A DNA stretch of 32,000 bases from Ferroglobus placidus DSM 10642 (GCF_000025505.1 NC_013849.1:270001-302000), one strand, 5' to 3'. Counted from the stretch's first letter, positions 3,522-28,087 are shown. Translations and numbers: made by a program. The notes: generated from the letters alone by a model not told the origin.

Positions 3522-3567
3522 GGGGAAAAGGGAAGAAGTTTAGTTCCAAGAGATAAGTGTCAGCTCG

Positions 3568-3598
3568 TTTGATTTTATTCATTTTTCAGCTCTTTTTT
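3568..3598 (+). terminator. Oligo-T tract cluster, candidate archaeal terminator of the nar/narK unit
   Basis: T4, T5 and T6 runs at 3573-3576, 3582-3586 and 3593-3598, about 50-75 nt after the narK stop. Archaeal RNAP terminates at oligo-T. Confidence 0.35.
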
Positions 3599-3659
3599 AT
3601 TGAAGTTAGAAGTCTGTTTCCCATCTATTTTTCTCACCACCGACCGAACTTTTGATGAG

Positions 3660-4263
3660 TTTTCAATCCTCTTTTCATCGAGCAAAAACTTCTTGAGGAG
3701 AAGGGAAACCCAGAGGAGTTCAACTTTCAATCCTCTTTTCATCGAGATTCTTTTGCTTCCGCTGATAGTTTTGCTGGCACTAATTCCTCCTTTCAATCCT
3801 CTTTTCATCGAGCGGGATAGGAGGCACAGGCAGATTTATGGACATAATGGTGACTACCTTTCAATCCTCTTTTCATCGAGAAGGAATTAAAAGGAGTCAA
3901 AACGAAGCTGGACGAATACCGCTTTCAATCCTCTTTTCATCGAGTAAATGCCTCAGTTCGGTGGTGGAGGTGGTGTTGGTATAACTTTCAATCCTCTTTT
4001 CATCGAGTGTCTCCAGCTTTCAGACTGGAGTTTTCGCAACTCCTGCTCCTTTCAATCCTCTTTTCATCGAGAATTGGAAGAAAAGACGAAACTTATGACG
4101 ACATTATACGCCTTTCAATCCTCTTTTCATCGAGCGTTCTACCTGAACCATTCAACTACAGATGCATCCATTATAATCTTTCAATCCTCTTTTCATCGAG
4201 ATGAGCACATCAGGTCTCCCCTCTTCGTTTTCCTGATACCCTTTCAATCCTCTTTTCATCGAG
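3660..4263 (-). CRISPR. CRISPR array, 10 repeats of 23 nt and 9 spacers of 40-45 nt
   Basis: CTTTCAATCCTCTTTTCATCGAG (+ strand) starts at 3660 (first base T instead of C), 3724, 3790, 3858, 3922, 3985, 4049, 4112, 4178 and 4241. All spacers are unique. The reverse complement CTCGATGAAAAGAGGATTGAAAG ends in the canonical 8-nt crRNA handle ATTGAAAG, so I infer minus-strand transcription with the leader at 4264 and above. The degenerate repeat sits at the leader-distal end, which fits that orientation. Confidence 0.95.
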
Positions 4264-4384: not shown

Positions 4385-4553
4385 AAAAATTTAAATAGTA
4401 GAAAACTTTCAGCTCCTTTAACAGCGTTAAAGGTGCGAAATGTTCGAGTAGTCCAGAAATTTTGGAAGGAGAATAAAACCCTTGTTGGTCTTCATTTGAT
4501 GGATTTTAGCGGTGCTTTTAGAGAATAATCATAAGTAATTGCGGTTTTTAAAG

Positions 4554-5264
4554 TTATTTCGATTCTCCTCGTTTGGCAACTCTTGCTATCAAACTCGCGA
4601 AAACGGCAGCCCCAAAACCGTTGTCGATGTTCACGACTGCCAAGCCGGAAGAGCATGAGGAGAGCATGGAAAATAGCGCCGTAAATCCCTTCAAACTCGT
4701 TCCGTAGCCGATTGACGTTGGAACTCCTATAACTGGCACGTCGACCAAGCCGGCAACTACTGAAGGCAAAGCCCCCTCCATTCCCGCGACGACGATTATC
4801 GCCACTACTCCTTCTTCCATGCACTTCTTTAAAGGCTCTAAAAGTCTGTGAATCCCAGCCACACCGACGTCGTAAAACTTCAGCGGCTCTATTCCGAGAA
4901 AAATCAGAGTTTCGCAAGCCTCTTCAGCAACAGCTATGTCTGATGTCCCGGCTGAAAGGACAGCCACTTTTGCGAAGGGTTGAGGAATATCTCCAACTAT
5001 TACCGTTCTCGCCCTCTCGTTGATTCTTGCGTTTCCGAATCTCTTTTTCAATTCTTCGAGATGCTCTTTTTTAACCCTCGTAACGAGGACTCTTCCTTTC
5101 TCCTTAACGTAAGCTTCGATTATTTTCACGAGCTCCTCCAAGCTTTTCCCTTCTCCGAAAACGGCTTCGGGCTTACCAGCTCTCTCCTCTCTAAAAATGT
5201 CTATTTTCGCAAAATCCTCGACCTCTTTAATTAATTTTTTAAAAAAATCGTCTCTAAGATTCAT
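4554..5264 (-). CDS. larB: LarB-like / PurE-related (COG1691-type) protein, putative nickel-pincer cofactor biosynthesis carboxylase
   Basis: 236 aa. The C-terminal half, [17 protein letters not shown]...[29 protein letters not shown], is PurE-fold-like, with the extra N-terminal domain typical of LarB. 11-nt overlap with the carB stop. Confidence 0.7.
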
Positions 5265-8200
5265 ACTTCCTCTTCACTTCCTCGTGGTACTCCTGCAAAG
5301 ACTTTATGCTCAATTCAGCCTTTCTTATCGCTTCTATCCCTTTTACAGCGGCTAAAGCTCCGCTGTAGGTCGTTATGTAGGGAATGTTGTAGTCAACTGC
5401 CGCTCTCCTGATCATGTATCCTTCAGTCTTTCCTCTTCTTCCTGAAGGCGTGTTTATTATCAAATCGATCTCTCCGTTTATTATCAAATCGATGACGTTC
5501 GGCCTTCCCTGACTTATTTTAGGAACGATTTCAGCGTCAATTCCGTGCTCTTTTAAGAACTGGGCTGTGCCATCCGTTGCGAGGATTCTGAATCCCATTT
5601 CTTTGAGCTTCTTAGCCACTGGTAAAATCTTCTCTCGATCGTGCTTTCTCACGCTTATGAAGACCGTCCCTTCCGTTGGCAGCTTCATTCCCGCTGCGAG
5701 CTGGGCTTTGTAGTACGCCAATCCGAAATCGTAGTCTATCCCCATGACTTCTCCGGTGGACTTCATCTCCGGTCCTAATACTGGATCAACTCCCGGAAGC
5801 TTCAGGAAGGGGAAGACAGCCTCCTTCACTGAAACGTGGTCGGGAAACAGTCTCTCCTTAACTCCAAGCTCCTTTAGCTTTTTACCCATCATGACTTTGG
5901 CGGCGATTTTCGCAAGAGGAATTCCCGTAGCTTTGCTTACGAAAGGAACGGTTCTGCTCGCTCTCGGATTTGCTTCGAGTATGTAAACTTCGTTGTCCTT
6001 GACGGCGTACTGAACGTTTATCAGCCCGATAACTTTGAGTTCGAGGGCTAATTTTCTCGTGTAATCGATTATCTTGTCTATAACTTCCTTCGAAAGCGAC
6101 TGGGGTGGAAGAACGCAAGCTGAATCTCCGCTGTGCACTCCAGCCTCTTCTATGTGCTCCATAATTCCTCCTATCAGAACTTCTTCTCCATCGCAGACAG
6201 CATCTACCTCAACTTCTATCGCATCTTCGAGGAATTTGTCGATGAGAATCGGCTTCTCCGGGGAGACTTCCAAAGCCTCTCTGATGTATCTTTCGAGAGT
6301 TTCCTCGTCGTAAACGATCTCCATCGCTCTTCCACCGAGAACGTAACTCGGTCTTACCAGAACTGGATAGCCTATCTTCTTCGCTACCTCCTTAGCTTCC
6401 TCAACGCTGAACGCTATTCCGTTTTCCGGCTGTGGAATTCCGAGCTTCCTGCATATTTCCGCGAATCTCTTTCTGTCTTCCGCTATGTCTATCGAATCGA
6501 CGCTCGTTCCGAGAATTTTCGCTCCGCTCTCCTCAAGCTGTTTGGCTATGTTTAAAGGAGTTTGTCCGCCAAACTGAACGAGAACACCTTCTGGCTTTTC
6601 GTTCTCGTAGATGTTCATGACGTCCTCGTGAGTTATCGGCTCGAAGTAAAGTCTGTCTGATGTGTCGTAGTCCGTTGAAACCGTCTCAGGGTTGCAGTTG
6701 ACCATTATAGTCTCGTATCCTTCTTCTTTCAAGCTGTAAACGGCGTGAACGCAGCAGTAGTCGAACTCGATTCCCTGCCCAATTCTGTTGGGACCGCTTC
6801 CGAGAATCATGACCTTCTTTCTTTTGCTTGGAACGGCATCGTTTTCCTCTTCGTAGGTGGAGTAATAGTACGGCGTTTTTGCTTCGAATTCAGCTGCGCA
6901 CGTGTCGACCATTTTGAAAGTAGCCACGATTCCTTTACTTTTCCTCGCTTTTCTAACGTCTCTCTCATCCACTCCGAAAATCTTCGCAATCTGGTAGTCG
7001 CTGAAACCGAATCTCTTAGCTTTCCTCAGCAATTCCTTCGGAACTTCGTCTATCGAGTACTTCTTTGCCGCTTCTCTCAGCTCTCTCTCAACATCAAGAA
7101 TGTTTTTGATCTTGCTGATGAACCACTTATCGATTTTAGTAAGCTCCGCAACCTCGTCAACGCTGAAGCCGTTGAGGAGTGCGTACCTGATGTAGAAAAC
7201 TCTCTCGGGGTTTGGAGTTATGAGCTTCTTTACTATCTCATCTTTGCTTGGCTGTTTATCTTTTCCGTCGGCTCCAAGCCCGTACCTTCCTATTTCCAAG
7301 CTTCTCAAAGCTTTTTGCAGCGCCTCTTCGAATGTCCTTCCGATTGCCATAACCTCTCCAACGCTTTTCATCTGCGTTCCCAGAGTTGGGTCTGCTGTCG
7401 GGAACTTGTCGAAAGCGAAACGCGGAATTTTTACGACCACGTAATCTATGGTTGGCTCGAAGCTTGCTGGAGTTTCCTTCGTTATGTCGTTGGGAATCTC
7501 ATCTAAAGTGTAGCCCACGGCAAGCTTCGCAGCTATCTTCGCTATCGGATATCCCGTGGCTTTAGATGCTAAGGCTGAGCTCCTGCTAACCCTCGGGTTC
7601 ATCTCGATAGCCAAAAATCTGTCTGAGCTCGGATGGACAGCAAACTGAATATTACTGCCACCGGTTTCGACACCTATCTCTCTTATTATCGCAATAGCGG
7701 CGTCTCTCAACCTCTGGTATTCGTAATCCGTAAGGGTCTGGGCTGGAGCTACGGTGATGCTGTCGCCGGTATGGACACCCATCGGATCGAAGTTTTCTAT
7801 GGAGCATATTATCACGACGTTATCCGCTTTGTCCCTCATCACTTCGAGCTCGAACTCCTTCCAGCCGATGACGCTCTCTTCGATGAGAACTTGATGAATC
7901 ATCGAAAGTTCGAGACCCTTCCTAACTATCTCCTTTAACTCCTCCCTGTTGTAAGCTATTCCTCCTCCGGTCCCTCCGAGGGTGAAAGCTGGTCTTACGA
8001 CAACAGGATATCCGAGCTCTTCGGCAATAGTTAAGGCGTCGCTAACGCTTTCAGCTATTTCACTCCTCGGCACCTCGAGCCCTATGTTCTCCATAGCTTT
8101 CTTGAAGAGGTCTCTGTCTTCCGCTTTCTTTATCGCATCTACGTTAGCACCTATCAGCTCCACTCCGTATTTGTCAAGAACACCCATCTCGTGAAGCTTT

Positions 8201-12978: not shown

Positions 12979-14190
12979 ATGTACCGAACTTTAGCCTTTA
13001 AATCGGCTAAAACAGCCTACTGGAAACTGCTCGTGGCTAAGGAAAGTTTGGACGTCAAGAAAGGGGAAGTTTACAGGGTTGAAGTTGAGAAAATACGATT
13101 ACCTCCAAACACCATAGTTTCTCCGTTGGCGATAAAGAGACACGGCTACGGAATCGTTGTTGACGTTAAAGAGGACAAGCCGGAAAAAATCGACGGAGAG
13201 AGGAGCATAGAGGCTGCTTATTTCTTAGCCACTTCAGACGGAAACGTTGAGGAGGGAGATTTAATTGGAGTCGTTAAGGTTTATCCAGTTAAGACTGCTC
13301 CAGCGGAGATGATAAGCAGAGTTGAAGCTCCTGAAGTGAACGTTAGAATGGAAAAGAAGAAGGTGAAGCTCGTTACAAAGAAGGGAAGGAAAGAGGTGGA
13401 GATCGAAGAGCTATGGTACAGAAGGTGGAACGTCGCTGAGTGGTTCCCCATCATAGCGGACGAAGATAAAAGCGTGGAAAAGGGAAAGCTTGAGGAAATA
13501 AGGATAAAGACGATAGAGCTTCCTCCAAACACGATCCCCGTTCCTCTTTACATAATGAGAAACGCTTACGGAACAGTTCTCGATTTAGAAGCTGTTGAGC
13601 TAAAGAAAGTTGAGGAAAAAACGAGGATAAACAAAGTTTACTTCCTGCCGGTTTTTCCCGGAGAGATAAAGAAGGGGGACCTCCTAGGAGTTCTGAACGT
13701 TTATTACATTTCTGTTGGGGAGAGGAGCGTTCAGCTCTTACGCTACTTAACTGAAAAGGTTAAGGCGAGAATCGTTTACTGGGAGGATGAGTGGAGGGTC
13801 AACAGCAGCGAGATAGAAATCGAGCCGCTAAGCTTCAAGAGAAGTCCTCTCGGGCTGATAGAGCCAATATTCAGCGCTGAGAACAAGAAGCTAATAAAGG
13901 GAGTTCCGGAAGTCGTGAAGATTGAAATGCTTGAATTTCCATCTGGAACCATACTCCAACCAGTCTCCGGAAAGTCCAGAGATCAGCTGATGCTTATCGA
14001 CGTTATGAGCTTCGAACCTCCGAGACTTGTCGAGGAAGACAAGAGAATTACTCATGCGGTCGTTCTTCCAACGGAAACTACAGAGATTAAGAAAGGGGAT
14101 TACATCGGAATGATGCTCGTTTACAACGTTTCCGTTTTACTTGAGCCGTATTTCTTCATGAAGAGGCACGAGCTCAGGGGAAGTATCTAA
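12979..14190 (+). CDS. Hypothetical protein built of three tandem 140-aa modules (DUF22-like as I recall the family)
   Basis: 403 aa. The anchors LPPNTI (aa 41), LPPNTI (aa 181) and FPSGTI (aa 320) repeat. So do EEGDLIGVVKVY (aa 91), KKGDLLGVLNVY (aa 231) and KKGDYIGMMLVY (aa 371), at an exact 140-aa period. Confidence 0.8.
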   Translation: MYRTLAFKSAKTAYWKLLVAKESLDVKKGEVYRVEVEKIRLPPNTIVSPLAIKRHGYGIVVDVKEDKPEKIDGERSIEAAYFLATSDGNVEEGDLIGVVKVYPVKTAPAEMISRVEAPEVNVRMEKKKVKLVTKKGRKEVEIEELWYRRWNVAEWFPIIADEDKSVEKGKLEEIRIKTIELPPNTIPVPLYIMRNAYGTVLDLEAVELKKVEEKTRINKVYFLPVFPGEIKKGDLLGVLNVYYISVGERSVQLLRYLTEKVKARIVYWEDEWRVNSSEIEIEPLSFKRSPLGLIEPIFSAENKKLIKGVPEVVKIEMLEFPSGTILQPVSGKSRDQLMLIDVMSFEPPRLVEEDKRITHAVVLPTETTEIKKGDYIGMMLVYNVSVLLEPYFFMKRHELRGSI

Positions 14191-16468
14191 ACTCAGCCAC
14201 CTCTTTATACTTTTCCACATCCGTTTTTCTCCTCTCGCCCTTAAATACTTTCTCTATTACGTTAATCGCCCCGAGCCTATTCAAAGGCTGGTTGTTGTTA
14301 CCGCACTGATAGCTGTAAGTACACTTTGGACAACCGTCCACTCTTTGACAGCTACACTTTTTTAAAACATCGTAAGCAACTCTGAATGCCTTTTCGAGCC
14401 TCGAAAAGAGAAGCTTGCTCAATCCGTTCCCTCCTGGAGTGGCGTCGTAGACGAAGATGTCCCCTTCCGGAGTGGATATTCCTCCCATGTAGTTGCTCCC
14501 TCCTCCAGTTAACGAATTACTTGCTTCAATTAAAACGTGCTCTAAAGCGTGGAAGCTACCGGCGTAGAAGTCTTCGTAGTCCATGTAGTCCGGGAAGGGA
14601 GAGGAGAACAGGAATCCTTTAGTTCTAAAAGTGTAGCTTACGGGCTCGTTTAAGTAGTTTATTCCGAGTTTCTCTCCGGTATATACGTTTTTAACAACGT
14701 AACCGAAGACTGAGATCGTCACATCCATATCGCAGTAGACAGCATTTACCGGCTTTTCTATTTCTTCGATCTCCTTTATAATCCTCGGAATGGACGTGTA
14801 GAGAGGATCGGTGATCTCCTCTCCTCTCTCGTAAGGCTCAACTTCGGCAACGAAGTTCTTAAGGTCGAGTTTCAAGCTCCTAATTCTTCTGCCGGCATGG
14901 ATAACAATTCCTCCGGGGAAAAGCTCCTTTATAGCCATGGGTAACGCTCTTTCTCCAATCTCCTTTCCTTCGAGCAGTATTTTTACCCTTTCTCCAATTC
15001 CCCTCATGTTGAATTTTTTCAGGAACTCCTCAGCCTTCCTCGTCGCGAGGTATAATCCTCCAGCATTAACCAGATATCCCTCTTTCGCGTATTTTTCCAA
15101 ATCCTCTACTTCTCCCTCAAAAATTGCTTTTTCCTTAGCCATGGAGAGAATGTGGTATTTCTTCAACTCCTCGTTGTCCTTTTCAGCGTAGCAGAACATC
15201 TCGTCTTTAAAATACTCCTCGGGGTTGTTTCTGTAGTAGTTAGCTATGGAATCGTCTTCTCTCAAAATCAGCACTCCAACGCTTTCCTGTCCTTTTCTTC
15301 CAGCTCTTCCGCACCTCTGGAGGAATTGAGGGAAAGGAACTAATTCGGAAACGACTACTTCCACATCGCCTATGTCTATTCCCAGCTCAAGGGTTGAAGT
15401 TGCCACGACAATTTTGACTCTACCTTCTTTAAACTCTTTCTCAACCCTTCTCCTCTCTTTCTTCGTCATTCCACCTTTGTGCACTCTCGCCACTATTCCT
15501 TCTCTGTTCAAAATCCATGCTATGGTTTCGACAGCTTTATAGCTATTGGCAAATACGAGCGTCTTTTTTCCGAGCAAAGATTTAACGCAGTCCTTTACGG
15601 CTCCGTAGAAACTTGGAGTGTAGCGCATTATGAAGTGGAGAGTACCTTTTCTCCCGGATGATTTAACGACTTCAAACTTCTTACCAAAAACGTATTCAGC
15701 GAACTCCTTAGGGTTTGCTATTGTGGCTGTAGACGCTATTACCCTAAAATCCGAAAACCTTTCGAGTCTTTTCACGAGCCAGGCAACGTTGGAGCCAAGC
15801 AGTCCGCTGTAGCTGTGAAGTTCGTCGAAAACGAGAAACCTAACCTTTTCGGCAACTCTCCTGAATGCCGGAGTGTTTCTTAGGTGGTAATCAACCATGT
15901 CGGGATTTGTTAGAATTAAATCGGCTCTACCGCTCAGAACTTCCCTTCTTTCGCTATATCCAGAATCTCCGTCGAACTTTACCGCGTTAAATCCGAAGAA
16001 GGAGGAGTAGTAGGAAATCTTTTCATATTGATCGCTCGCTAAAGCTTTTGTCGGATAAAATATCAGAGCTTTTTCACCTTTCTTCAAACTTTCGAGGATG
16101 GGAATTGTGAACGCTTCAGTCTTACCGAAGCCGGTTGGAGCAACTATTACGACGTTCTTTCCTTCTCTTATCTTTTCAATAGCCTCAACCTGAAACTTGT
16201 ATAGAGACTTGATTCCTCTCGATAACAGGGCTGATTTGGCTCTTTCCGAGAGATTTACTTCGCTTAAATCGATTCTCTCGACCTCTTCTGGATCGAACTT
16301 TCTATAGACAACTATCTCGTCCTCGGTGTCGAACAACCCTTTTAGCTCGCGAACTCCGCAGTATTTTTCGAAAATTTCCAAGTTCTTCTGTCGCGTGGAG
16401 ATTCTCTCGCAGATGCATCTGCTCTTTATTCTACCGCACTTCGGACAGAAGAAATCTTCTGCTTTCAT
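14174..16468 (-). CDS. DExH-box helicase with N-terminal Zn ribbon and C-terminal DUF1998/MrfA-type Zn-binding (MZB) domain
   Basis: 764 aa. CPKCGRIKSRCIC; Q motif LYKFQVEAI; APTGFGKT; FDELH; STAT; QRCGRAGR. C-terminal HALEHVL...CSCQRVDGCPKCTYSYQCGNNNQPLNR is the four-Cys DUF1998 signature. Confidence 0.9.
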   Translation of the reverse strand: MKAEDFFCPKCGRIKSRCICERISTRQKNLEIFEKYCGVRELKGLFDTEDEIVVYRKFDPEEVERIDLSEVNLSERAKSALLSRGIKSLYKFQVEAIEKIREGKNVVIVAPTGFGKTEAFTIPILESLKKGEKALIFYPTKALASDQYEKISYYSSFFGFNAVKFDGDSGYSERREVLSGRADLILTNPDMVDYHLRNTPAFRRVAEKVRFLVFDELHSYSGLLGSNVAWLVKRLERFSDFRVIASTATIANPKEFAEYVFGKKFEVVKSSGRKGTLHFIMRYTPSFYGAVKDCVKSLLGKKTLVFANSYKAVETIAWILNREGIVARVHKGGMTKKERRRVEKEFKEGRVKIVVATSTLELGIDIGDVEVVVSELVPFPQFLQRCGRAGRKGQESVGVLILREDDSIANYYRNNPEEYFKDEMFCYAEKDNEELKKYHILSMAKEKAIFEGEVEDLEKYAKEGYLVNAGGLYLATRKAEEFLKKFNMRGIGERVKILLEGKEIGERALPMAIKELFPGGIVIHAGRRIRSLKLDLKNFVAEVEPYERGEEITDPLYTSIPRIIKEIEEIEKPVNAVYCDMDVTISVFGYVVKNVYTGEKLGINYLNEPVSYTFRTKGFLFSSPFPDYMDYEDFYAGSFHALEHVLIEASNSLTGGGSNYMGGISTPEGDIFVYDATPGGNGLSKLLFSRLEKAFRVAYDVLKKCSCQRVDGCPKCTYSYQCGNNNQPLNRLGAINVIEKVFKGERRKTDVEKYKEVAEFRYFP

Positions 16469-16827
16469 CCGAGGATCGATAGAATTTTCTTTACCCTTTC
16501 GTCTATCAAGCTGTATATTCTGAACTTGCCAACGACGTCTTCTCTTACTATCTTCGCATCTCTTAGCTTAGCTAAGTGGTGGCTTACGAGCGTTTGATCC
16601 TTTCCTACGACTGCCGAAAGAACGCAGACGCATTGCGGTGAGCTTAAAAGAGTTCGCACTATCTGAAGTCTTATCGGATTGGATATAGCTTTTAAAATTC
16701 TTGAATACTCTTCCAGCTCTTTATCGCTATAGTATTCGATTATGGCATCTTCGTTGCAGATGCAAGCGTCTTCTTCGACAACTAAGTCTCCTACTCTCAC
16801 CTTCACGACCATCCTCCGACCCCTCAT
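16465..16827 (-). CDS. ArsR/SmtB-family regulator with CVC and CIC cysteine pairs
   Basis: 120 aa. LKAISNPIRLQIVRTLLSSPQCVCVLSAVVGKDQTLVSHHLAKLRDAKIV carries a CVC at the position of the ELCVCDL metalloid site of ArsR. An extra CIC lies in the N-terminal extension. There are 4-nt ATGA overlaps with both neighbours. Confidence 0.8.
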   Translation of the reverse strand: MRGRRMVVKVRVGDLVVEEDACICNEDAIIEYYSDKELEEYSRILKAISNPIRLQIVRTLLSSPQCVCVLSAVVGKDQTLVSHHLAKLRDAKIVREDVVGKFRIYSLIDERVKKILSILG

Positions 16828-17498: not shown

Positions 17499-18053
17499 TT
17501 AGCTTTTAATAGCTTTTATTACGATGTAGCAAACGAGAAAGTAGCTAAAAGCAATCGCGGCTGCTTCAACGAATAATACAAACGAAGAAATGAAGAAGTA
17601 GGCAAACTTGCCGAGCTTAACAACGCTTCTGTAATCCAGGAAATGCATGAAATCTATCGAGTATGTGGGTTTAGTCATAGCATTGGAGAAACCCCAGAGG
17701 AAAATGATGGCAAGAATTATTGAAAAAGATAGAAACATATTTCTCCTCTCCTCTTCTGTCGTTCGCTTCTCGAAAGGAATTATTGAAATGTTCATTCCGA
17801 GGGCTATCTGGGTTGCGAGGATTAACATGAGAACCGTACCTAAAAGAGACGCGTATTCGATAGGAAGTTTCGCCATTTGAGTTGTGGCAAGCGAGAGCGT
17901 AGATGCTAGCAAGAGAGTAACCGCAACCCTGTAACCGGCTTTTAGCTTGCTCAATGCCCTGTAAGTGGCGAGGGCGTAGAGGGTTAGCAGAAGAGACGGT
18001 ATTAGGAACACGAGCACGAGAAAGAATAAGAATCCCTCAATCACCTCTTTCAC
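17499..18053 (-). CDS. Polytopic membrane protein, unknown function
   Basis: 184 aa with about 6 hydrophobic helices. GTG start in the track; the exact start is uncertain (GAGGTGA motif at the 5' end). Confidence 0.6.
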   Translation of the reverse strand: MKEVIEGFLFFLVLVFLIPSLLLTLYALATYRALSKLKAGYRVAVTLLLASTLSLATTQMAKLPIEYASLLGTVLMLILATQIALGMNISIIPFEKRTTEEERRNMFLSFSIILAIIFLWGFSNAMTKPTYSIDFMHFLDYRSVVKLGKFAYFFISSFVLFVEAAAIAFSYFLVCYIVIKAIKS

Positions 18054-18161: not shown

Positions 18162-19253
18162 TCAGGTTGTGTTTCTGACTTTTAAGCATTCCACATCAGC
18201 TCCGAAAACGTCTTTGCTGAACTCGTAGGCAAAAACTCTGCACCCTCCCCTGCAAATCATGTATTTCTCGCATCCGAGACATTCCTTTACCTCGTACCTT
18301 CTGAAAGAATCCATGCACCTCCAAATTTCTCCTATCCTTTCGTAATCGCCGAGTTCTACGTTCAGAAAGCTGCACGGCAGAACTTTTCCGTCGGATTTCA
18401 CCGCTATGCTAGATATTCCGCAGTCACACCCCTGCATTCCTGCGAGAACGTTTTCGTCCAAACTAAGAAATGGCATGAATGCGCAGTCAACTCTCAGGAG
18501 AACGTCGTAATCGAGAAGAGATCGAAGAATCCCGTCTATTCTTTTAAGCTGATGGCTGCTTAGCCTTACCTCTTCGTAATTCTTAGCCCCTCTTCCGGCA
18601 GGTTTTACTCTTATGAGCATAACCTCACCGACATTCAAGTCTTCCGCAAGCTGAAGAATCTCGTGAAGCTTGTCGAAGTTGTGTCTGCTAACAACCGTGT
18701 TTATCCCAACATTGTAGCTTTCCGAGAGCTCTTTTATAGCTTTAACTGCTCTTTCGAACCCGTCGCACCCTCTCGCCCTCAGATAAGTTTCCCTCTCGGC
18801 TCCGTCGAGGGAGACGTTTATCTGTCCGAAGAAGTCAAGCTTCTCGATTCTATCGACAAAAAATCCGTTTGTCGTTACGTTCGGGACGATTCCGAGATCG
18901 TAGGCATGACTAGCAATATCAACAAAATCGTCCCTCGCAAACGGCTCCCCTCCGCCAAATGCGACTTGGAACACGTTCATCTCGGCAAGTATTTCCATGA
19001 GCCTCATCATATCTTTTGTTCTCATTTCCGCCTTTCTGTCAACGGCGTAGCAGTACCTGCATTTTAACGGACACTTCTTCGTTACCTCAACGTGTATGAC
19101 TTCCGGAGCGGAGAGATGATCGAAATCCGGAAAATCCTCGTATCCGAGGCTCTTCATGTATTCTCTGTCAACGTAAAGAGTGGTTCTGTGATCCGGGTCG
19201 AATATTATTCCGCCGAAGCTTTCAGCTCTTATCTTCACCCTCCTCACTTCCAA
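18162..19253 (-). CDS. Radical SAM enzyme with a complete SPASM domain (peptide/protein-modifying type)
   Basis: 363 aa. The CX3CX2C motif is VTKKCPLKCRYCYA. The C-terminus, CDCGISSIAVKSDGKVLPC ... CLGCEKYMICRGGC ... ECLK, gives GX4C then CX2CX5CX3C then C, the 7-Cys SPASM pattern. The N-terminal RAESFGGIIFDP segment resembles SPASM maturases. TTG start in the track. Confidence 0.9.
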   Translation of the reverse strand: MEVRRVKIRAESFGGIIFDPDHRTTLYVDREYMKSLGYEDFPDFDHLSAPEVIHVEVTKKCPLKCRYCYAVDRKAEMRTKDMMRLMEILAEMNVFQVAFGGGEPFARDDFVDIASHAYDLGIVPNVTTNGFFVDRIEKLDFFGQINVSLDGAERETYLRARGCDGFERAVKAIKELSESYNVGINTVVSRHNFDKLHEILQLAEDLNVGEVMLIRVKPAGRGAKNYEEVRLSSHQLKRIDGILRSLLDYDVLLRVDCAFMPFLSLDENVLAGMQGCDCGISSIAVKSDGKVLPCSFLNVELGDYERIGEIWRCMDSFRRYEVKECLGCEKYMICRGGCRVFAYEFSKDVFGADVECLKVRNTT

Positions 19254-19395
19254 TCACTCCGAGTCTTGCGAGTGCGTAAATATATCCTGCAGCTATCACC
19301 GCAGCCACAGTTACCGCGACGGGATACGTGAGAATGAATCCGAATCCGCTCGAACAGTCTGGAATGTAGCCGAATTTGACTTTGTATACTTTCAT
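19222..19395 (-). CDS. Unannotated 57-aa ORF (single-TM peptide) between the membrane protein and the radical SAM gene
   Basis: My translation: MKVYKVKFGYIPDCSSGFGFILTYPVAVTVAAVIAAGYIYALARLGVIGSEEGEDKS. The ATG at 19395 forms an ATGA overlap with the stop of ORF 19392..20027. The 3' end overlaps the radical SAM start by 32 nt. It is below the 60-aa track threshold. Confidence 0.45.
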   Translation of the reverse strand: MKVYKVKFGYIPDCSSGFGFILTYPVAVTVAAVIAAGYIYALARLGVIGSEEGEDKS

Positions 19396-20027
19396 CTTCC
19401 AACCCTCCAGATTATGGCTGCCAGAACTGCGAGAGTTGTGGAGTAAATTATGGCGTTGGTAATAAGAAATCCGGCTCTGCTGAAAAATGGAAGCATGAGG
19501 ATGGTTGAGACGAGGTAAGCTATGAAAATAACCGGAATTAACGCTGAATTTCTTCTCGGGTTAACTCTCGCGTACGCAAACCCAACGATCCATGGTGGAG
19601 AAGTCCAGAGGTAGAATTGAAGAAATTCCTCGGCTCTCATTCCAATATCGAAGTATTCTGACCAGTTTTCTGGAGGTGGCGGAGTGTAGAGGTGAAGAAA
19701 AGCTGTAAACGCTGCTGCAGTTATAATAACGGGAACGGGAAAGAAAGGGATTCCCCTCGTCCTGAATGCCGAGTAAAGCAAAGGCAAGAAGATTCCTGCA
19801 GCGATCGAGATTGCCGTGGAAAATAGAACGTCTTTAAAGCTCAGAATTACGGTCAGCTCTATCCAGAACGGGACTATCGCTCCGTAAATGCTCCACTTAG
19901 CCACATCCATTCTGCTGACTTCGCTTTGCTTAGCTTCCCAACCAAAATTCCTGCTCAAAAAGTTAAATGTGTAAAGACTCACGCCAGCGAATGCTAGCAT
20001 CGGAAGAAGAAAGTTCGCGATGCTCAT
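19392..20027 (-). CDS. Polytopic membrane protein (211 aa), unknown family
   Basis: About 6 hydrophobic helices. 4-nt overlap with the upstream LolA-like gene. Confidence 0.7.
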   Translation of the reverse strand: MSIANFLLPMLAFAGVSLYTFNFLSRNFGWEAKQSEVSRMDVAKWSIYGAIVPFWIELTVILSFKDVLFSTAISIAAGIFLPLLYSAFRTRGIPFFPVPVIITAAAFTAFLHLYTPPPPENWSEYFDIGMRAEEFLQFYLWTSPPWIVGFAYARVNPRRNSALIPVIFIAYLVSTILMLPFFSRAGFLITNAIIYSTTLAVLAAIIWRVGR

Positions 20028-20998
20028 GGCTTCATGGATTCAGCTATTTTTATCAGTTCCTCCTTTTCAAGTTGACCGCTTATCGAAATCATCACGCCGT
20101 CTTTTTTGAAAGCGAGCATTCCGTTGCCGAAAATCTCAGCGTAAACACCTTCTTCGTCTCCGATCTTAACTTTCTCGCTGTTGGATAGCTTCGGCAACTC
20201 ATCTCCGGGGCTCTCCGTGATCGTCAGAATTCTCCCCTCTTTCTCGTAGACGATGGAGATCATTTCTCCTATCACCTTGACTTCCTTAAGCTCGTATCCA
20301 GCGGTGTATTCGGGCTTGAATAACGTGAAGTTAACGTGCTTTTCAGCCTCTTCAACGCTCTCGAACTTCCGAATTCCGAAGTCCTCTTCCGTCTTCACCT
20401 TCGCCCCTTCCGGGATTTTGAACTCGAAGAGTTCGTCGCTAACTCCGGTGTTGAACTCCACATTTTTGTACTCCGTTATAATCTTTATTCCGTAGCTCTC
20501 GCTCTCTATTCTCAGCGGATACCAGAACTCCTTGTCGACCCACATCTTTGCGCTCTGATTCATTTCCTTCGACTTCAGCTCTATTACGTAGCATTCTCTT
20601 TCTGCAACTCTTTCAACTCCTAAAAGCTTTACTTCGTACATTTCAAGCATTTCTTTGACGAGCTTTCCGTAGTCTGGATTTACGGGCATTTTGCTGACGT
20701 TCATTACGAATACTTCGTTCTTTTTCTCATCGTATATCCACATCTTTTCGCCGTTTGAGACGATAAGCGTCCCGGCTTTTTCATTTCTCATCCAAATTTT
20801 GTTCGGCTTCTTGAAGACGTATTCGTACTCCATCGTGATGTTTCCGCTTTCGCCAATCATCGTGTAGCTAATTTTCCCTTTGAAGTCGTTTACGGAGTCG
20901 TACTTCTCCTCTAATTTCTTCGCAATCTCTTCCGCACTCATCTGCGTGCACGCTGATACAAAAACGAGAGTCGCAAGGATTACGAAAATTTTTCTCAT
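20024..20998 (-). CDS. LolA-like fold lipoprotein with a DUF4367-like C-terminal domain
   Basis: I chose the start MRKIFVILATLVFVSAC (signal peptide plus lipobox VSAC). DFKGKISYTMIGESGNITMEYEYVFKKPNKIWMRNEKAGTLIVSNGEKMWIYDEKKNEV matches the LolA/COG2834 pattern. A TATA box lies 22 nt upstream of this ATG, so the track's 27 extra N-terminal residues are unlikely. Confidence 0.75.
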   Translation of the reverse strand: MRKIFVILATLVFVSACTQMSAEEIAKKLEEKYDSVNDFKGKISYTMIGESGNITMEYEYVFKKPNKIWMRNEKAGTLIVSNGEKMWIYDEKKNEVFVMNVSKMPVNPDYGKLVKEMLEMYEVKLLGVERVAERECYVIELKSKEMNQSAKMWVDKEFWYPLRIESESYGIKIITEYKNVEFNTGVSDELFEFKIPEGAKVKTEEDFGIRKFESVEEAEKHVNFTLFKPEYTAGYELKEVKVIGEMISIVYEKEGRILTITESPGDELPKLSNSEKVKIGDEEGVYAEIFGNGMLAFKKDGVMISISGQLEKEELIKIAESMKP

Positions 20999-21019
20999 GA
21001 TTTTTGGAGTTTTCAAAAA

Positions 21020-21027
21020 TATATAAA
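21020..21027 (-). promoter_or_regulatory. BRE/TATA promoter (GGAAAAG TTTATATA) of the LolA-like/radical SAM operon
   Basis: The minus strand reads GGAAAAGTTTATATATTTTTGAAAACTCCAAAAATCATG. The TATA ends 22 nt before the ATG at 20998, which implies a leaderless transcript. Confidence 0.5.
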
Positions 21028-24907: not shown

Positions 24908-25915
24908 TTATCGATTTTCCGATGCCCGACACTTCTGCAGCAATCGACGGACCCTAATAATTTCCCACCCGATTCCCAGAGCAAACCTCAAACTCGAAAA
25001 GGCCATCGACGGCTCAGCGTAGCAAAGCAAGTAACATCCTCTGCAGCTTTCAGCCATTCTGCAACCTTTGGCGTACTCCTCGCTCTCGATTATCTCTTTT
25101 AAGCTCCTGTTTTTCAAGTTTCCCGCTGTAACGTAATCCACCTCGTAGCACGGAGAGATCACGCTACCGTCTGGATTAACCCTTAAAAGCAGGTATGGCA
25201 TGCAGTTGACCCTCTTCCCTTCAATTATGAGGTTCAGGTAGGGCGTCGAATTCAGTATGCATCTGAACTCTCTTTTCAGCTGGAGAATTCTTCCAATTGT
25301 ACCTCTCAGCTTAGCTTCATCGACAGTCGCACAGCCTTCGAAGTAGGTTGAGACGGGCTCGAATGTTATTCCCGCTCCGACGCTTTCAGCGAAAGTGACA
25401 AGGTCTTCAATCTCGTTGATGTTATCGTCGTGCAGAACGACGTTTACGCACGTTTGAACACTCTGAGACGCTTTCTTTATCGCCTCTACAACTGTGTTGA
25501 GCGCGTCGACTCCCGTTATTTTTCTGAACTTTTCTCTGCTGAGCGTGTCGAGGCTTACAACAAGTAAATCCACGTTCAGATTGGAAAATTTTTCAAGCAA
25601 AAGTCCGTTGGTCACGAGCATCGTGTAAAGTCCGCAATCCTTTGCCTTTCTGAGGATTTCGTTGACGTCTCTTCTTAACAGCGGTTCGCCTCCGGTGGCG
25701 GTGTAAACTGCCATTCCGACGTCTGCAGCACCCTCTATCATTCTCTTGACTTCTACCGTGCTCATCTCATCGCATCTCCACATCCAGTAAGCGCAGTAGT
25801 GGCAGCGCATGTTGCACCTGAACGTCAGCATGTGGGCGAGAACAATAGGCTGGCGTTTTCTTAACAGGTTATTTTTCACGTAGGCTTTAAGGAGCTTCGA
25901 AATAACGCGGATCAT
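24908..25915 (-). CDS. Radical SAM enzyme with a non-canonical Cys-rich (SPASM/twitch-like) C-terminus
   Basis: 335 aa. The CX3CX2C motif is FRCNMRCHYCAYW. GGEPLL is present. The C-terminus NCMPYLLLRVNPDGSVISPC ... CRMAESCRGCYLLC has spacing CX5CX2CX3C rather than CX2CX5CX3C. The N-terminal KRQPIVLAHMLTFRCN layout resembles HpnH-like radical SAM proteins as I recall them. Confidence 0.9.
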   Translation of the reverse strand: MIRVISKLLKAYVKNNLLRKRQPIVLAHMLTFRCNMRCHYCAYWMWRCDEMSTVEVKRMIEGAADVGMAVYTATGGEPLLRRDVNEILRKAKDCGLYTMLVTNGLLLEKFSNLNVDLLVVSLDTLSREKFRKITGVDALNTVVEAIKKASQSVQTCVNVVLHDDNINEIEDLVTFAESVGAGITFEPVSTYFEGCATVDEAKLRGTIGRILQLKREFRCILNSTPYLNLIIEGKRVNCMPYLLLRVNPDGSVISPCYEVDYVTAGNLKNRSLKEIIESEEYAKGCRMAESCRGCYLLCYAEPSMAFSSLRFALGIGWEIIRVRRLLQKCRASENR

Positions 25916-25921
25916 GGAAAA

Positions 25922-26503
25922 TCACGAAACGTAGATTCTCACAACCCTGTTCTCATCCAGATCCACGAGAGCCGAAACCACCCTATCGCTATGCCAGGTT
26001 ACGCTGAACAGCTCTTTCGGTATGTAGAACTTCGCTGCGGTGTGAGGTAGAACTCTTCTGACGGTAACGTGTCCCTTAGCGTTCTCGTAGATTGTTTCGT
26101 TGCTCAGAGCTACGCTTATCGCTTTTTCTTTGACACTCAGTGGTAAGGCTTCGAGCAGGTAAGATTTGAGCGTGAGAGAACCGTTTTCGAAGACGAACAG
26201 GTAGATGTCTTCGCCAGGCAAATCATTGCTTTTCGCCTTGACGATTATTTTCTCTCCCTCGACGCTCACGTTCACTTCCGTGTAGCTGAATCCGTCGTAG
26301 GGAGAGAGAAACTCTTCAGGATAGTTTTCAATTCTCTCAGCAATTTCTTCTGCTGTCAAAGTATTGTTCTCGGATTTGTGGTTTTGATAGCTCTCGGATT
26401 TACTCTGGTTTGACTCAGCACCGCTTTTCACTTCTCCGCTTTGAAAGCAGCCAGCAACAAGAATCGCAAAGAGAAGAAAAAATAGGAGTAAAATCTTCTT
26501 CAA
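25922..26503 (-). CDS. Lipoprotein (193 aa), unknown function
   Basis: Signal peptide plus lipobox: MKKILLLFFLLFAILVAGC. 1-nt gap from the upstream gene stop and 6-nt gap to the radical SAM start. Confidence 0.75.
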   Translation of the reverse strand: MKKILLLFFLLFAILVAGCFQSGEVKSGAESNQSKSESYQNHKSENNTLTAEEIAERIENYPEEFLSPYDGFSYTEVNVSVEGEKIIVKAKSNDLPGEDIYLFVFENGSLTLKSYLLEALPLSVKEKAISVALSNETIYENAKGHVTVRRVLPHTAAKFYIPKELFSVTWHSDRVVSALVDLDENRVVRIYVS

Positions 26504-26504
26504 G

Positions 26505-27740
26505 TTACTCTACCTCCACGCTCAGCGTGAAACTCTCGCAGCTCGGCAGAATTTCAACCTTCCAGTTTCCGCTTTCTGGATTCTCTATCGTGTAAATTTC
26601 TGTCTTTCTGTAACTCGTGACCGTGTATATCCCTTCAGCCTCCTCCCACGGCGGGAGCTTGCTTTCCGATAGAGTGACCCCTACCTCCTCAACGAGCTTG
26701 CTCGGCTTCACGCTCAAAACACCACTCGGCGAGAACATTTTCACGTCGAAGTCGCAGGATTTCTCCGCAGATCTTCCGTAGCTGCTAGCGGAAATCTTGA
26801 CCGTAACTTTCGTGGCGTTATCGACTCGAAAGACCTTTACGAACGGCTCGCTCGGTTTCTCGTAGACTCTTAGGTTTAGCTCGACTCTCTGCAACCACTC
26901 ATCCAGCCCGGGATCTTCGACGTTGAGCTTTATTGTTCCCCTCAGCACGCCCTTTGCTGTTGATGGAACGCTCACCTTCACCTTCACGACAGCCTTCGAC
27001 TGAGGCTGTATCACGGAGGGAGCTTCTATGGTTACGTGGCTTTCGTCCATCCAGCTGACCGGAGAGAACGGGTCGTAGTAAACCTCTTCACCCTTAAAGA
27101 GCTCGGGATCCATCTTCACAGGCTCATCTCCCGTATTTTCAACGTAAATTCTGTACTCGTAACTCCCGCCAGCTTCAACTCTGTCGTCGATGAACCTCGG
27201 GTAAATTTTGACCTTCGGCGGTATCCAGACGTTCACACTCAGGCTCATCTGGTTCACGTAGAAGGGTTTGGCTGAGTAGGGCATCGGAAACGTGTCGTTC
27301 GTGAATGCTATTATGCAGTTGTAGTAACCCTTTTCTGCATCCTCAGGCACCTTCACCGTCACTTTGATCTCCGCCTTCTCCTCAGCCTTTAAAACGAACT
27401 TGCCTTTGTCGAAGCTCACCCAACTCTCATCTACTACGTTTTCGAAGAACGGAAACGTCACGATCCTCGGCTCCACAGCTACATCTCTATTGTTGGGATT
27501 CTTCAGCTTCACTGTAAACGTTTTCTCGTCTCCCGGCGTTAAGCGGAGGTGCTTGTACCTTGGCTCGATAACTATTCTCGTCACGTTCTCGTACATTTTT
27601 TCGATGTCTACTTTTTCCACTGGAATCGGTGCTGGAGGTGGGACCGACACAACTTTAACTTCCTCAACCACCTTAGCCGAACTTCCCGCCGCCACCCCGA
27701 GGAGGAGTAAAACGAGCATCGAAGCCAGCGTTTTGTTCAT
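26505..27740 (-). CDS. Secreted protein with tandem beta-sandwich (CARDB/NEW3/COG1470-like) domains
   Basis: I chose the start MNKTLASMLVLLLLGVAAGSSA (GAGGTGA SD 5 nt upstream). Repeated motifs LTPGDEKTFTVKLKNPNNRDVAV...VTVKVPEDAEKGYY and EAGGSYEYRIYVENTGDEPVKM...VKVSVPSTAKGVLRG are typical of adhesin/S-layer-type Ig-like folds. Confidence 0.8.
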   Translation of the reverse strand: MNKTLASMLVLLLLGVAAGSSAKVVEEVKVVSVPPPAPIPVEKVDIEKMYENVTRIVIEPRYKHLRLTPGDEKTFTVKLKNPNNRDVAVEPRIVTFPFFENVVDESWVSFDKGKFVLKAEEKAEIKVTVKVPEDAEKGYYNCIIAFTNDTFPMPYSAKPFYVNQMSLSVNVWIPPKVKIYPRFIDDRVEAGGSYEYRIYVENTGDEPVKMDPELFKGEEVYYDPFSPVSWMDESHVTIEAPSVIQPQSKAVVKVKVSVPSTAKGVLRGTIKLNVEDPGLDEWLQRVELNLRVYEKPSEPFVKVFRVDNATKVTVKISASSYGRSAEKSCDFDVKMFSPSGVLSVKPSKLVEEVGVTLSESKLPPWEEAEGIYTVTSYRKTEIYTIENPESGNWKVEILPSCESFTLSVEVE

Positions 27741-27884
27741 TCGACTCACCTCTTCCAACTTTATCCAGTTAGATATATAACTTTTCTGACCATATCTTGA
27801 GATTATTTTTATTACTTTATTTTTCTTATTGTTTTATATTTTCAGGAACGGATAGTTTGGATTTCTCAAACAAACAAATTTTTG

Positions 27885-28031: not shown

Positions 28032-28087
28032 GCCGATGATGACCCCTCCCCTAGCTGAAGAGTGATGAATTTGCCGATTACTGAGGT
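28032..28087 (+). ncRNA. C/D box sRNA (2'-O-methylation guide)
   Basis: C box ATGATGA 28036-28042. 12-nt guide CCCCTCCCCTAG 28043-28054. D' box CTGA 28055-28058. 3-nt spacer. C' box GTGATGA 28062-28068. 12-nt guide ATTTGCCGATTA 28069-28080. D box CTGA 28081-28084. Short CC/GG terminal pairing. This is the canonical archaeal geometry. Confidence 0.75.

Follow-up and report, generated by a model that had tools for sequence, protein, structure and literature searches.

What does the radical S-adenosylmethionine (SAM)/SPASM enzyme encoded at the end of a short gene chain in Ferroglobus placidus act upon, and which of its neighbours belong to it? The chain lies on the minus strand of a 32,000-nt stretch of the genome of strain DSM 10642 (GCF_000025505.1 NC_013849.1:270001-302000), here called the window, in which positions are counted from the first letter. 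An initial annotation, made from the sequence alone, had proposed a unit of four genes, encoding a LolA-like lipoprotein, a polytopic membrane protein, a 57-residue peptide and the enzyme, and had left two options for the latter: that it matures one of the envelope proteins before export, or that it modifies the peptide. Comparative data favour the second option, in that the pair of peptide and enzyme is conserved across archaea and bacteria. We suggest that the genes for the membrane protein (Ferp_0330), the peptide (Ferp_0329) and the enzyme, at positions 18162-20027 on the minus strand, are the Archaeoglobaceae version of a widespread and unnamed two-gene module, which comprises a cytoplasmic radical SAM/SPASM enzyme and an apparently single-pass membrane peptide of 50-110 residues. 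We are highly confident that the peptide and the enzyme form a functional pair. The picture of the window is thereby corrected: the unit of interest would be these three genes, with the LolA-like lipoprotein outside it.

Radical SAM/SPASM enzymes are a main source of new peptide chemistry. To our knowledge, every characterised SPASM member that modifies a peptide or protein acts on a soluble peptide or on an exported protein. Here, a whole SPASM clade, present in two domains of life and abundant in soil Myxococcota, is paired with a hydrophobic and apparently membrane-anchored micro-protein, whose target-like motif is short and sharply defined and might offer a route to a new modification.

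Conservation of the enzyme and of the small gene beside it

Homologues of the enzyme comprise 11 close sequences at 60-65% identity and a large set at 31-40%; the top genome matches were four Archaeoglobaceae metagenome-assembled genomes (60-65% identity), followed by unrelated phyla at no more than 40%. The comparison took in five orthologous loci of Archaeoglobaceae (L001 and L007-L010, which overlap with L002-L004), and in all five the order of a membrane-protein homologue (200-223 aa), the peptide and the enzyme is kept. The distant homologues (31-40% identity) have the same kind of small gene directly upstream. They occur in Heimdallarchaeota, in Myxococcota and other "Deltaproteobacteria", and in Planctomycetota, Nitrospirota, Thermodesulfobacteriota, Bacteroidota, Fibrobacterota, Elusimicrobia, Saccharibacteria, Clostridia, Terriglobales and others. 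Starting from the enzyme, we found the peptide at about 72 of 80 representative-genome loci (~90%; 66 by a first filter and six more by inspection), where it mostly ends within ~20 nt of the enzyme start; several of the remaining loci end upstream before the position of the peptide. Starting from the peptide, a search of metagenome contigs with the pattern GYNPNSSS[ILM] gave 68 evaluable loci, in 57 of which the enzyme gene lies directly downstream, with two more within 2.2 kb (~87%). An adjacent precursor gene, by which radical SAM-modified systems of RiPPs (peptides made on the ribosome and modified after translation) are recognised, thus has its counterpart here in both directions of the search. 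The claim that the enzyme is tied to an adjoining small product therefore holds from Archaeoglobaceae to Heimdallarchaeota and more than 10 bacterial phyla, whereas the four-gene composition is peculiar to this genome. The universal core would be two genes, those of the enzyme and the small hydrophobic peptide, and in Archaeoglobaceae three.

Some loci hold more than one peptide for a single enzyme. At L005, one enzyme gene is flanked by two pairs of peptide and membrane protein (4440-5020 and 6189-6811), each peptide with its own membrane-protein paralogue, and L031, L053 and L068 each carry two peptide paralogues per enzyme. Several peptides to one enzyme is a behaviour that resembles that of clients.

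The features of the chain in F. placidus are as follows.

18162-19247, minus strand: radical SAM/SPASM enzyme (ADC64507.1, 361 aa), with a Pfam Radical_SAM match; alternative starts TTG 19253 and GTG 19238
18186-18485, minus strand: SPASM auxiliary-cluster region with C252, C271, G284, C289, C320, C323, C329, C333 and C351 (358-aa numbering), invariant or at least 90% conserved among 22 homologues
19050-19073, minus strand: CxxxCxxC radical SAM cluster motif (C56, C60 and C63), invariant in the 22 homologues
19149-19238, minus strand: N-terminal mini-domain of the enzyme, motif KIRxESFGGII...YVD, a putative peptide docking site delimited in an AlphaFold2 model
19222-19395, minus strand: small hydrophobic peptide (Ferp_0329, ADC64508.1, 57 aa), kept in six of six Archaeoglobaceae loci; proposed substrate or partner of the enzyme
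19249-19347, minus strand: hydrophobic, predicted transmembrane segment (residues 16-49 by hydropathy scan) and acidic tail SEEGEDKS
19348-19371, minus strand: conserved motif G9-Y-I-P-D-C-S-S16 directly before the hydrophobic helix, defined by column frequencies in 71 peptides; proposed modification site
19392-20027, minus strand: polytopic membrane protein (Ferp_0330, 211 aa), upstream of the peptide in six of six Archaeoglobaceae loci
20024-20998, minus strand: LolA-like lipoprotein (ADC64510.1) with a C-terminal DUF4367 domain (Pfam), start ATG 20998, signal peptide and lipobox VSAC
20044-20054, minus strand: weak candidate internal TATA-like element GATAAAAATAG, which lies 19 nt upstream of the ATG that opens Ferp_0330, in the 3' end of the preceding LolA-like gene
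21020-21027, minus strand: TATA-box-like element TTTATATA, 22 nt upstream of ATG 20998

The four chained reading frames were found where the initial annotation had placed them, and both of the ATGA overlaps that it described are exact: at positions 20024-20027 the LolA-like gene ends and the membrane-protein gene begins, and at 19392-19395 the latter ends and the peptide gene begins. The 32-nt overlap that it gave between the peptide and enzyme genes, however, applies only to the start TTG 19253. The peptide gene ends at 19222 inside the enzyme gene, and the overlap is 26 nt with GTG 19247, the start implied by the 361-aa GenBank product, and 17 nt with GTG 19238, the start of the 358-aa call; in the orthologous loci it is 23-62 nt. 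GenBank names the two products "Radical SAM domain protein" (ADC64507.1) and "hypothetical protein" (ADC64508.1). The peptide is a real gene, because it is conserved in the six Archaeoglobaceae loci and in ~150 loci overall, but it was not hidden, as had been thought, being already annotated as Ferp_0329.

A single TATA element had been placed ahead of the chain, and TTTATATA does occur just once in the 32 kb. Given 0.62 matches expected per window and at least one match in 41 of 100 shuffles, a lone match is not significant in itself; the position would suit an archaeal TATA box with a leaderless mRNA. The element GATAAAAATAG is a possible internal promoter, which could let the cassette of membrane protein, peptide and enzyme be transcribed separately. 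At the orthologous loci, AAAATTTTTA[TA]A stands ~25 nt upstream of where the membrane-protein gene starts, and in four of the five the cassette stands behind the gene for the DNA polymerase II large subunit (PolC_DP2 domains), with its own TATA-like element in the intergenic region.

The lipoprotein proved to be LolA-like, as had been proposed: it reached the Pfam cut-offs of LolA_like (35.5 vs 30 bits), LolA (25.9 vs 23.6), MucB_RseB (30.6 vs 22.3) and DUF4367 (40.2 vs 22.1). UniRef names it "outer membrane lipoprotein carrier protein LolA"; we call it LolA-like and not LolA proper because it did not reach the cut-off of the bacterial LolA equivalog TIGR00547 (56.7 vs 112). A place for it as a conserved component or a likely substrate was not upheld. 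Peptide and membrane protein are kept at the five orthologous loci, but no LolA-like gene is found there or at any other locus examined. Because none of the five has one, the gene is an F. placidus-specific neighbour, and it would be a passenger that is translationally coupled to the cassette in this genome alone.

The enzyme and the membrane peptide

The enzyme belongs to the radical SAM family by its Pfam match (PF04055; E=5.8e-19, 69.3 bits vs a cut-off of 29.5) and to the SPASM group by its cysteine pattern. The complete seven-cysteine SPASM set that had been noted is indeed present, as C271-X12-G284-X4-C289, C320-X2-C323-X5-C329-X3-C333 and C351, and C252 adds an eighth cysteine; the Pfam SPASM hidden Markov model (HMM) scores just under its gathering threshold (19.5 vs 21.5) and is recorded for close homologues. 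By analogy with anSME, the eight cysteines would presumably allow two fully ligated auxiliary [4Fe-4S] clusters. No NCBIfam cut-off was reached by the enzyme, nor by the bacterial and Heimdall members. Its best score was to MftC (143.4 vs 265), followed by GeoRSP (131 vs 400) and PqqE (121.3 vs 381); StsB (108 vs 625) and WgkB (104 vs 650) scored similarly low, and Tes (NF045702, cut-off 450) was not among the top families.

An AlphaFold2 model built on an alignment of the 22 homologues has a predicted local distance difference test score (pLDDT) of 91.7 and a predicted template modelling score of 0.91, with alternating beta/alpha elements in the core. Foldseek ranked, among structures in the PDB, SuiB (E=1e-17, template modelling score 0.77), SkfB, PqqE, CteB, anSME and TigE, and a profile search of PDB sequences ranked PqqE (E=8.6e-33), SkfB, SuiB, CteB and anSME (74 bits). 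In this model the enzyme looks like a peptide maturase, since the closest solved structures named are all maturases of peptides or proteins.

Ahead of the barrel, the model contains a mini-domain of three strands (residues 2-6, 9-14 and 19-24) and a short helix (25-30), in which R4, E6, F8, G9, I11 and D24 are at least 90% conserved among the 22 homologues. HMMER gave a weak, non-significant local match of this part to FRLEKFGGIL near the N-terminus of SuiB, a region that we take to be the RiPP recognition element (RRE) of that enzyme. We read the mini-domain as a possible truncated RRE-like sheet.

The peptide carries a single hydrophobic stretch of 34 residues. The N-terminal 18 residues of the family are highly conserved, with the consensus [KR]G[RK][IV]L[KR][VI]KxGYNPN[SC]SS, of which KVYKVKFGYIPDCSS is the F. 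placidus version, whereas the helix segment keeps its hydrophobicity alone; this difference fits a conserved contact of the N-terminus with the universally conserved partner, the radical SAM enzyme. Among the 71 peptides, the motif has Gly in 70, Pro in 63, Asn in 64 or Asp in six, Ser in 62 or Cys in nine, and the second Ser in all 71. Archaeoglobaceae peptides (56-69 aa) follow the pattern M[KR]VY[KR]V[KR].GY.[PS]D[SC]S[GS]GFGF, then a hydrophobic helix and an acidic tail. Whether the choice of Cys or Ser in the variable motif column goes with particular enzyme residues was also examined; the idea was dropped, as the only five Cys-type pairs stem from two to three lineages and are confounded by phylogeny.

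The family is large: a word-indexed search gave 2,879 clusters at 90% identity, in which all the named members are "hypothetical protein" and none has a Pfam domain, and an exhaustive HMM search gave 541 clusters at 50% identity, nearly all of 50-110 aa. Searches of Pfam and NCBIfam with three family peptides gave nothing, although E values of up to 10 were allowed. Of 136 unique peptides, 118 carry more positive charge N-terminal to the helix than C-terminal to it (means +3.7 vs +0.8), and in Archaeoglobaceae the two flanks have charges of +2 and -4.3. On account of these charges and the positive-inside rule, the N-terminus and its motif should face the cytoplasm, with a strong bias in Archaeoglobaceae; this is also the side on which an enzyme that uses Fe-S clusters and SAM must work.

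A separate observation concerns a Heimdallarchaeota locus (L012, DXJF01000057.1), where an in-frame TAG (4786-4788) follows ...GYNPNCSGNM and the hydrophobic helix resumes in the same frame. Read-through of the stop codon might explain this, as might a sequencing error or a pseudogene.

How does this pair compare with systems already described? With the maturases of streptide (SuiB/StrB), sactipeptides (CteB and SkfB) and ranthipeptides (PapB), it shares the fold class, the CxxxCxxC motif and the full SPASM cysteine set, as well as a small gene directly upstream whose conserved N-terminus resembles a recognition sequence; in addition, its N-terminal beta-sheet domain bears a weak likeness to the beginning of the N-terminal part of SuiB. 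It differs from these RiPP systems in that the putative substrate is an integral membrane peptide that retains its hydrophobic helix, that the conserved motif is N-terminal and beside the membrane, that there are no conserved Cys, Trp or Lys residues as crosslink partners, and that the putative recognition domain is truncated to ~30 residues. MftC and PqqE are the best sequence matches (MftC in NCBIfam, PqqE among PDB sequences), and both act on an adjoining small peptide. The scores against their families (TIGR03962 and TIGR02109), however, remain under the cut-offs, the locus has no MftB/PqqD chaperone or PqqD-family gene, and the window has no pqq genes. Their precursors, unlike Ferp_0329, have no hydrophobic helix. 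What we take to be their motifs, a C-terminal Gly-Val-Tyr in MftA and Glu-x3-Tyr in PqqA, are absent from Ferp_0329, which ends in SEEGEDKS.

The likeness to anSME and AtsB lies in a similar size, the lack of a large RRE, presumably the eight cysteines for two auxiliary clusters, and cytoplasmic action on an envelope-bound protein; in addition, one position of the peptide motif is either Ser or Cys, which is reminiscent of the Ser-type and Cys-type targets in sulfatases. The target motif here, however, departs from (C/S)-x-(P/A)-x-R, and the neighbourhood holds neither a sulfatase gene nor a sulfatase motif. In an alignment to anSMEcpe, C276-D277-F stands opposite the family-invariant C289-S290-F291. 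If Asp277 is the catalytic base of anSME, as we take it to have been proposed, then an anSME-type mechanism with the same base is unlikely, despite the suggestive Ser/Cys alternation, because its position is held by the invariant Ser290.

In kind the system is a familiar one, in which a SPASM enzyme has a small peptide encoded beside it; what is unusual is the hydrophobic and apparently membrane-resident partner, the N-terminal juxtamembrane motif and the minimal recognition domain. The initial annotation knew of no described system with such a composition, and we likewise found none in Pfam, NCBIfam or PADLOC; a search of open-access papers and preprints gave no description of the peptide-enzyme pair, which may have been described elsewhere. 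An anti-phage defence system was considered and rejected: PADLOC gave similarity to the pVip/viperin core alone for the enzyme (74 bits) and nothing for the other four proteins.

Proposed function and competing explanations

How might the enzyme and the peptide work together? We propose docking by beta-strand addition, in which the basic N-terminal strand of the peptide (KVYKVKF in F. placidus, RILKVK in bacteria) joins the N-terminal three-stranded sheet of the enzyme. Once the peptide is docked, the active site would hold its invariant turn at the edge of the hydrophobic helix, G-x-x-P-(N/D)-(S/C)-S, and the 5'-deoxyadenosyl radical would there take a hydrogen and thereby start a covalent modification, possibly an oxidation, a crosslink or an epimerisation. 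The most likely target would be the (N/D)-(S/C)-S triad beside the membrane. The modified peptide might then act in the membrane with a lineage-specific polytopic partner, namely Ferp_0330, the 121-135-aa protein of Heimdallarchaeota or the bacterial protein that combines tetratricopeptide repeats (TPR) with transmembrane helices (TPR-TM protein). We lean, with no great margin of confidence, towards this reading, in which the enzyme installs a radical modification on the juxtamembrane motif at the cytoplasmic face of the membrane and the micro-protein afterwards works with its polytopic partner. A broader version is more tentative: the modified single-pass micro-proteins may serve as subunits or adaptors for diverse envelope proteins, namely the protein with six to seven transmembrane helices in Archaeoglobaceae, and TPR-TM proteins and metallophosphoesterases in bacteria. 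If this version is true, the enzyme would be the first SPASM maturase whose protein substrate is embedded in the membrane, in a modification system shared by Archaea (Archaeoglobaceae and Heimdallarchaeota) and more than 10 bacterial phyla.

Several observations speak against the proposed modification of the peptide. The mini-domain is without the winged-helix part of a canonical RRE and has no PqqD match in Pfam, and the loci have no conserved protease or ABC exporter, so that this is not a classical secreted RiPP. About 10% of the enzyme loci have no nearby peptide, and ~13% of the peptide loci have no nearby enzyme. Two of the latter (L088 and L089) encode a family peptide with no radical SAM gene within 3.5-4 kb, beside NAT-domain, hydrolase, polyprenyl synthase, UbiD and UbiE genes; others (L104, L163 and L168-L172) have none within 3.5 kb and are neighboured by TPR-TM, TlpA-like thioredoxin or metallophosphoesterase-like genes. 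Many bacterial peptides carry Arg or Lys right after the helix, which weakens the predicted topology outside archaea. Finally, in one locus of ~150 (L087 4001-5293, GCA_023954855.1), MKILAVRRGRAPNCSS and the helix are joined in frame to the enzyme in a single protein, P0062, and with a spanning helix the two parts of this fusion, motif and enzyme, would be separated by the membrane. An AlphaFold2 model of P0062 is neutral on docking of the motif, with a pLDDT below 50 for the peptide part, a region without alignment depth. Four other fusion candidates among the 150 best peptide-HMM matches (P0313, P0349, P0294 and P0360) were set aside, as they look frameshifted or chimeric; P0313 runs on into metallophosphoesterase-like sequence, and its helix is truncated.

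Could the peptide instead be a membrane tether or regulatory subunit, with the enzyme modifying a lipid, a quinone, a tetrapyrrole or the polytopic partner, after the precedent of Tes, GrsA/B and Gms? We regard this as rather unlikely, although a number of features would suit it: the motif stands right at the start of the hydrophobic helix, the genes are translationally coupled, the peptide nearly always has a polytopic membrane protein for a neighbour, a four-helix membrane protein with conserved His residues is often encoded as well in bacterial loci, and in-frame fusions such as P0062 are typical of subunits. Furthermore, the Heimdall homologue scores about equally against MftC and the tetrapyrrole enzymes NirJ and AhbD, and SPASM-type enzymes that work on archaeal membrane lipids do exist and are present in Archaeoglobi, including Archaeoglobus (PMC11214058; PMC13459092); the cassette has a membrane setting comparable to theirs. 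On the other side, the nearest solved folds are peptide maturases, and the scores to Tes, AhbD and NirJ are far under the cut-offs (39 bits to Tes for P0062); Tes (GDGT-MAS) aligns over the radical SAM core only, with a template modelling score of 0.49 and 51 bits. Gms, a homologue of AhbD, carries a further extension that binds lipid, and its authors set a minimum length of 400 aa (PMC11214058), whereas the enzyme here has 358-361 aa and nothing that extends past the SPASM domain, and the idea of a Gms/GMGT synthase was rejected for its length and domain architecture. No small membrane-peptide partner is described for Tes, GrsA/B or Gms, and a review of lipid-modifying radical SAM enzymes names no transmembrane or partner proteins (PMC13459092). 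Small, polar residues (G, P, N/D, S/C and S) make up the invariant positions of the peptide, a composition that would be unusual for a mere anchor, and several loci have two different peptide paralogues per enzyme.

The other option of the initial annotation, in which the enzyme would treat the LolA-like lipoprotein, or else the 211-aa membrane protein, as anSME treats sulfatases and mature it ahead of export, now appears very improbable. anSME is a precedent for the maturation of exported proteins by a cytoplasmic radical SAM enzyme, in F. placidus an ATGA overlap couples the LolA-like gene to the cassette, behind the sole TATA consensus, and the extracytoplasmic partners found in bacteria (TPR domains and metallophosphoesterases) make a lineage-specific client conceivable. 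Against this stand the absence of the LolA-like gene from the five orthologous and all other loci, the invariant Ser at the position of the anSME Asp277, and the restriction of the 211-aa family to Archaeoglobaceae, with no detectable homology to the other partners, in a system whose enzyme and peptide are universal. We give equally little credence to a housekeeping cofactor enzyme (AhbC/AhbD/NirJ heme, MoaA-like or tungsten-cofactor maturase) whose linkage to the small gene is incidental. A generic similarity is present, with scores of 105 to AhbD (cut-off 500), 104 to NirJ2 (500), 98 to NirJ, 81 to AhbC, 83 to MoaA and 76 to the tungsten-cofactor maturase (380), where the equivalog cut-offs of the heme-type families are 500-650. 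All of these scores, however, are three- to six-fold under the curated cut-offs, so that the enzyme is not a housekeeping one on the refuting condition set by the initial annotation; the peptide-enzyme pair is conserved across domains of life, and its patchy distribution does not suit a core pathway.

Membrane partners and other features of the window

In keeping with the six helices first proposed, hydropathy gives about six to seven helices in the 211-aa Ferp_0330, which has no match in Pfam or NCBIfam. Its family, with the invariants D41, W45, Y48, G49 and PPWIxG, is confined to Archaeoglobaceae (seven clusters in 5.8 billion proteins). In Heimdallarchaeota, the partner is a membrane protein of 121-135 aa. 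Bacterial loci usually encode, just upstream of the peptide, a protein of 370-420 aa that has TPR repeats, a C-terminal domain of several helices and either a signal peptide or a lipobox, and often, downstream, the four-helix protein of 150-185 aa with conserved His, YPxYR and KEHL motifs; some add a membrane-anchored metallophosphoesterase or a PSRP-like kinase/phosphorylase (PF03618). According to hhalign, three bacterial upstream families are mutually homologous (97-99%), and two bacterial downstream four-helix families likewise (98%). Homology among the Archaeoglobaceae, Heimdall and bacterial TPR-TM partners was rejected, with an hhalign probability of at most 1.5%. A polytopic membrane protein nearly always adjoins the peptide, and in the reordered locus L024 it is the TPR-TM gene that stays with the peptide.

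A Myxococcota sub-clade (L048, L057, L077, L082, L085, L086, L090 5494-6300 and L092 5499-6308) has a PSRP-like PF03618 gene downstream of the enzyme; in L090 and L092 it begins 10-14 nt past the enzyme gene with no phosphoenolpyruvate synthase gene beside it, a position of note near a Ser-rich target motif. In L090, moreover, an RseP-type M50 site-2 protease (2925-4004; HEFGH, PDZ and LDGG) replaces the TPR-TM gene and overlaps the peptide start by 4 nt. This single case hints at a possible intramembrane cutting of the peptide.

Around the chain, the window holds the following features.

17499-18053, minus strand: 184-aa membrane protein, a possible accessory component, 108 nt downstream of the enzyme gene and with no family match
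16465-16827: ArsR-family regulator, beyond the helicase gene and followed by a 102-aa membrane protein
14174-16468, minus strand: 764-aa DEAD/Helicase_C protein with a C-terminal MrfA Zn-binding domain, its 3' end overlapping the DUF22 gene
12979-14190, plus strand: protein with three DUF22 repeats (E=5.8e-93)
24908-25915, minus strand: second uncharacterised radical SAM/SPASM gene (335 aa; Radical_SAM, DUF3463 and SPASM), best NCBIfam score to PTO1314 (143.6 vs 306)
25922-26503: unannotated gene after the second radical SAM/SPASM gene, without an NCBIfam match
26505-27758: second unannotated gene there, with sub-threshold NPCBM_assoc, fn3-like and archaeal-flagellin-like Pfam matches only
28032-28087, plus strand: intergenic C/D box small RNA (Rfam snoPyro_CD, 46.5 bits vs a gathering threshold of 45, E=7.6e-07)

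A homologue of the 184-aa membrane protein lies directly upstream of the cassette in L001 (4591-5175), and in that locus alone.

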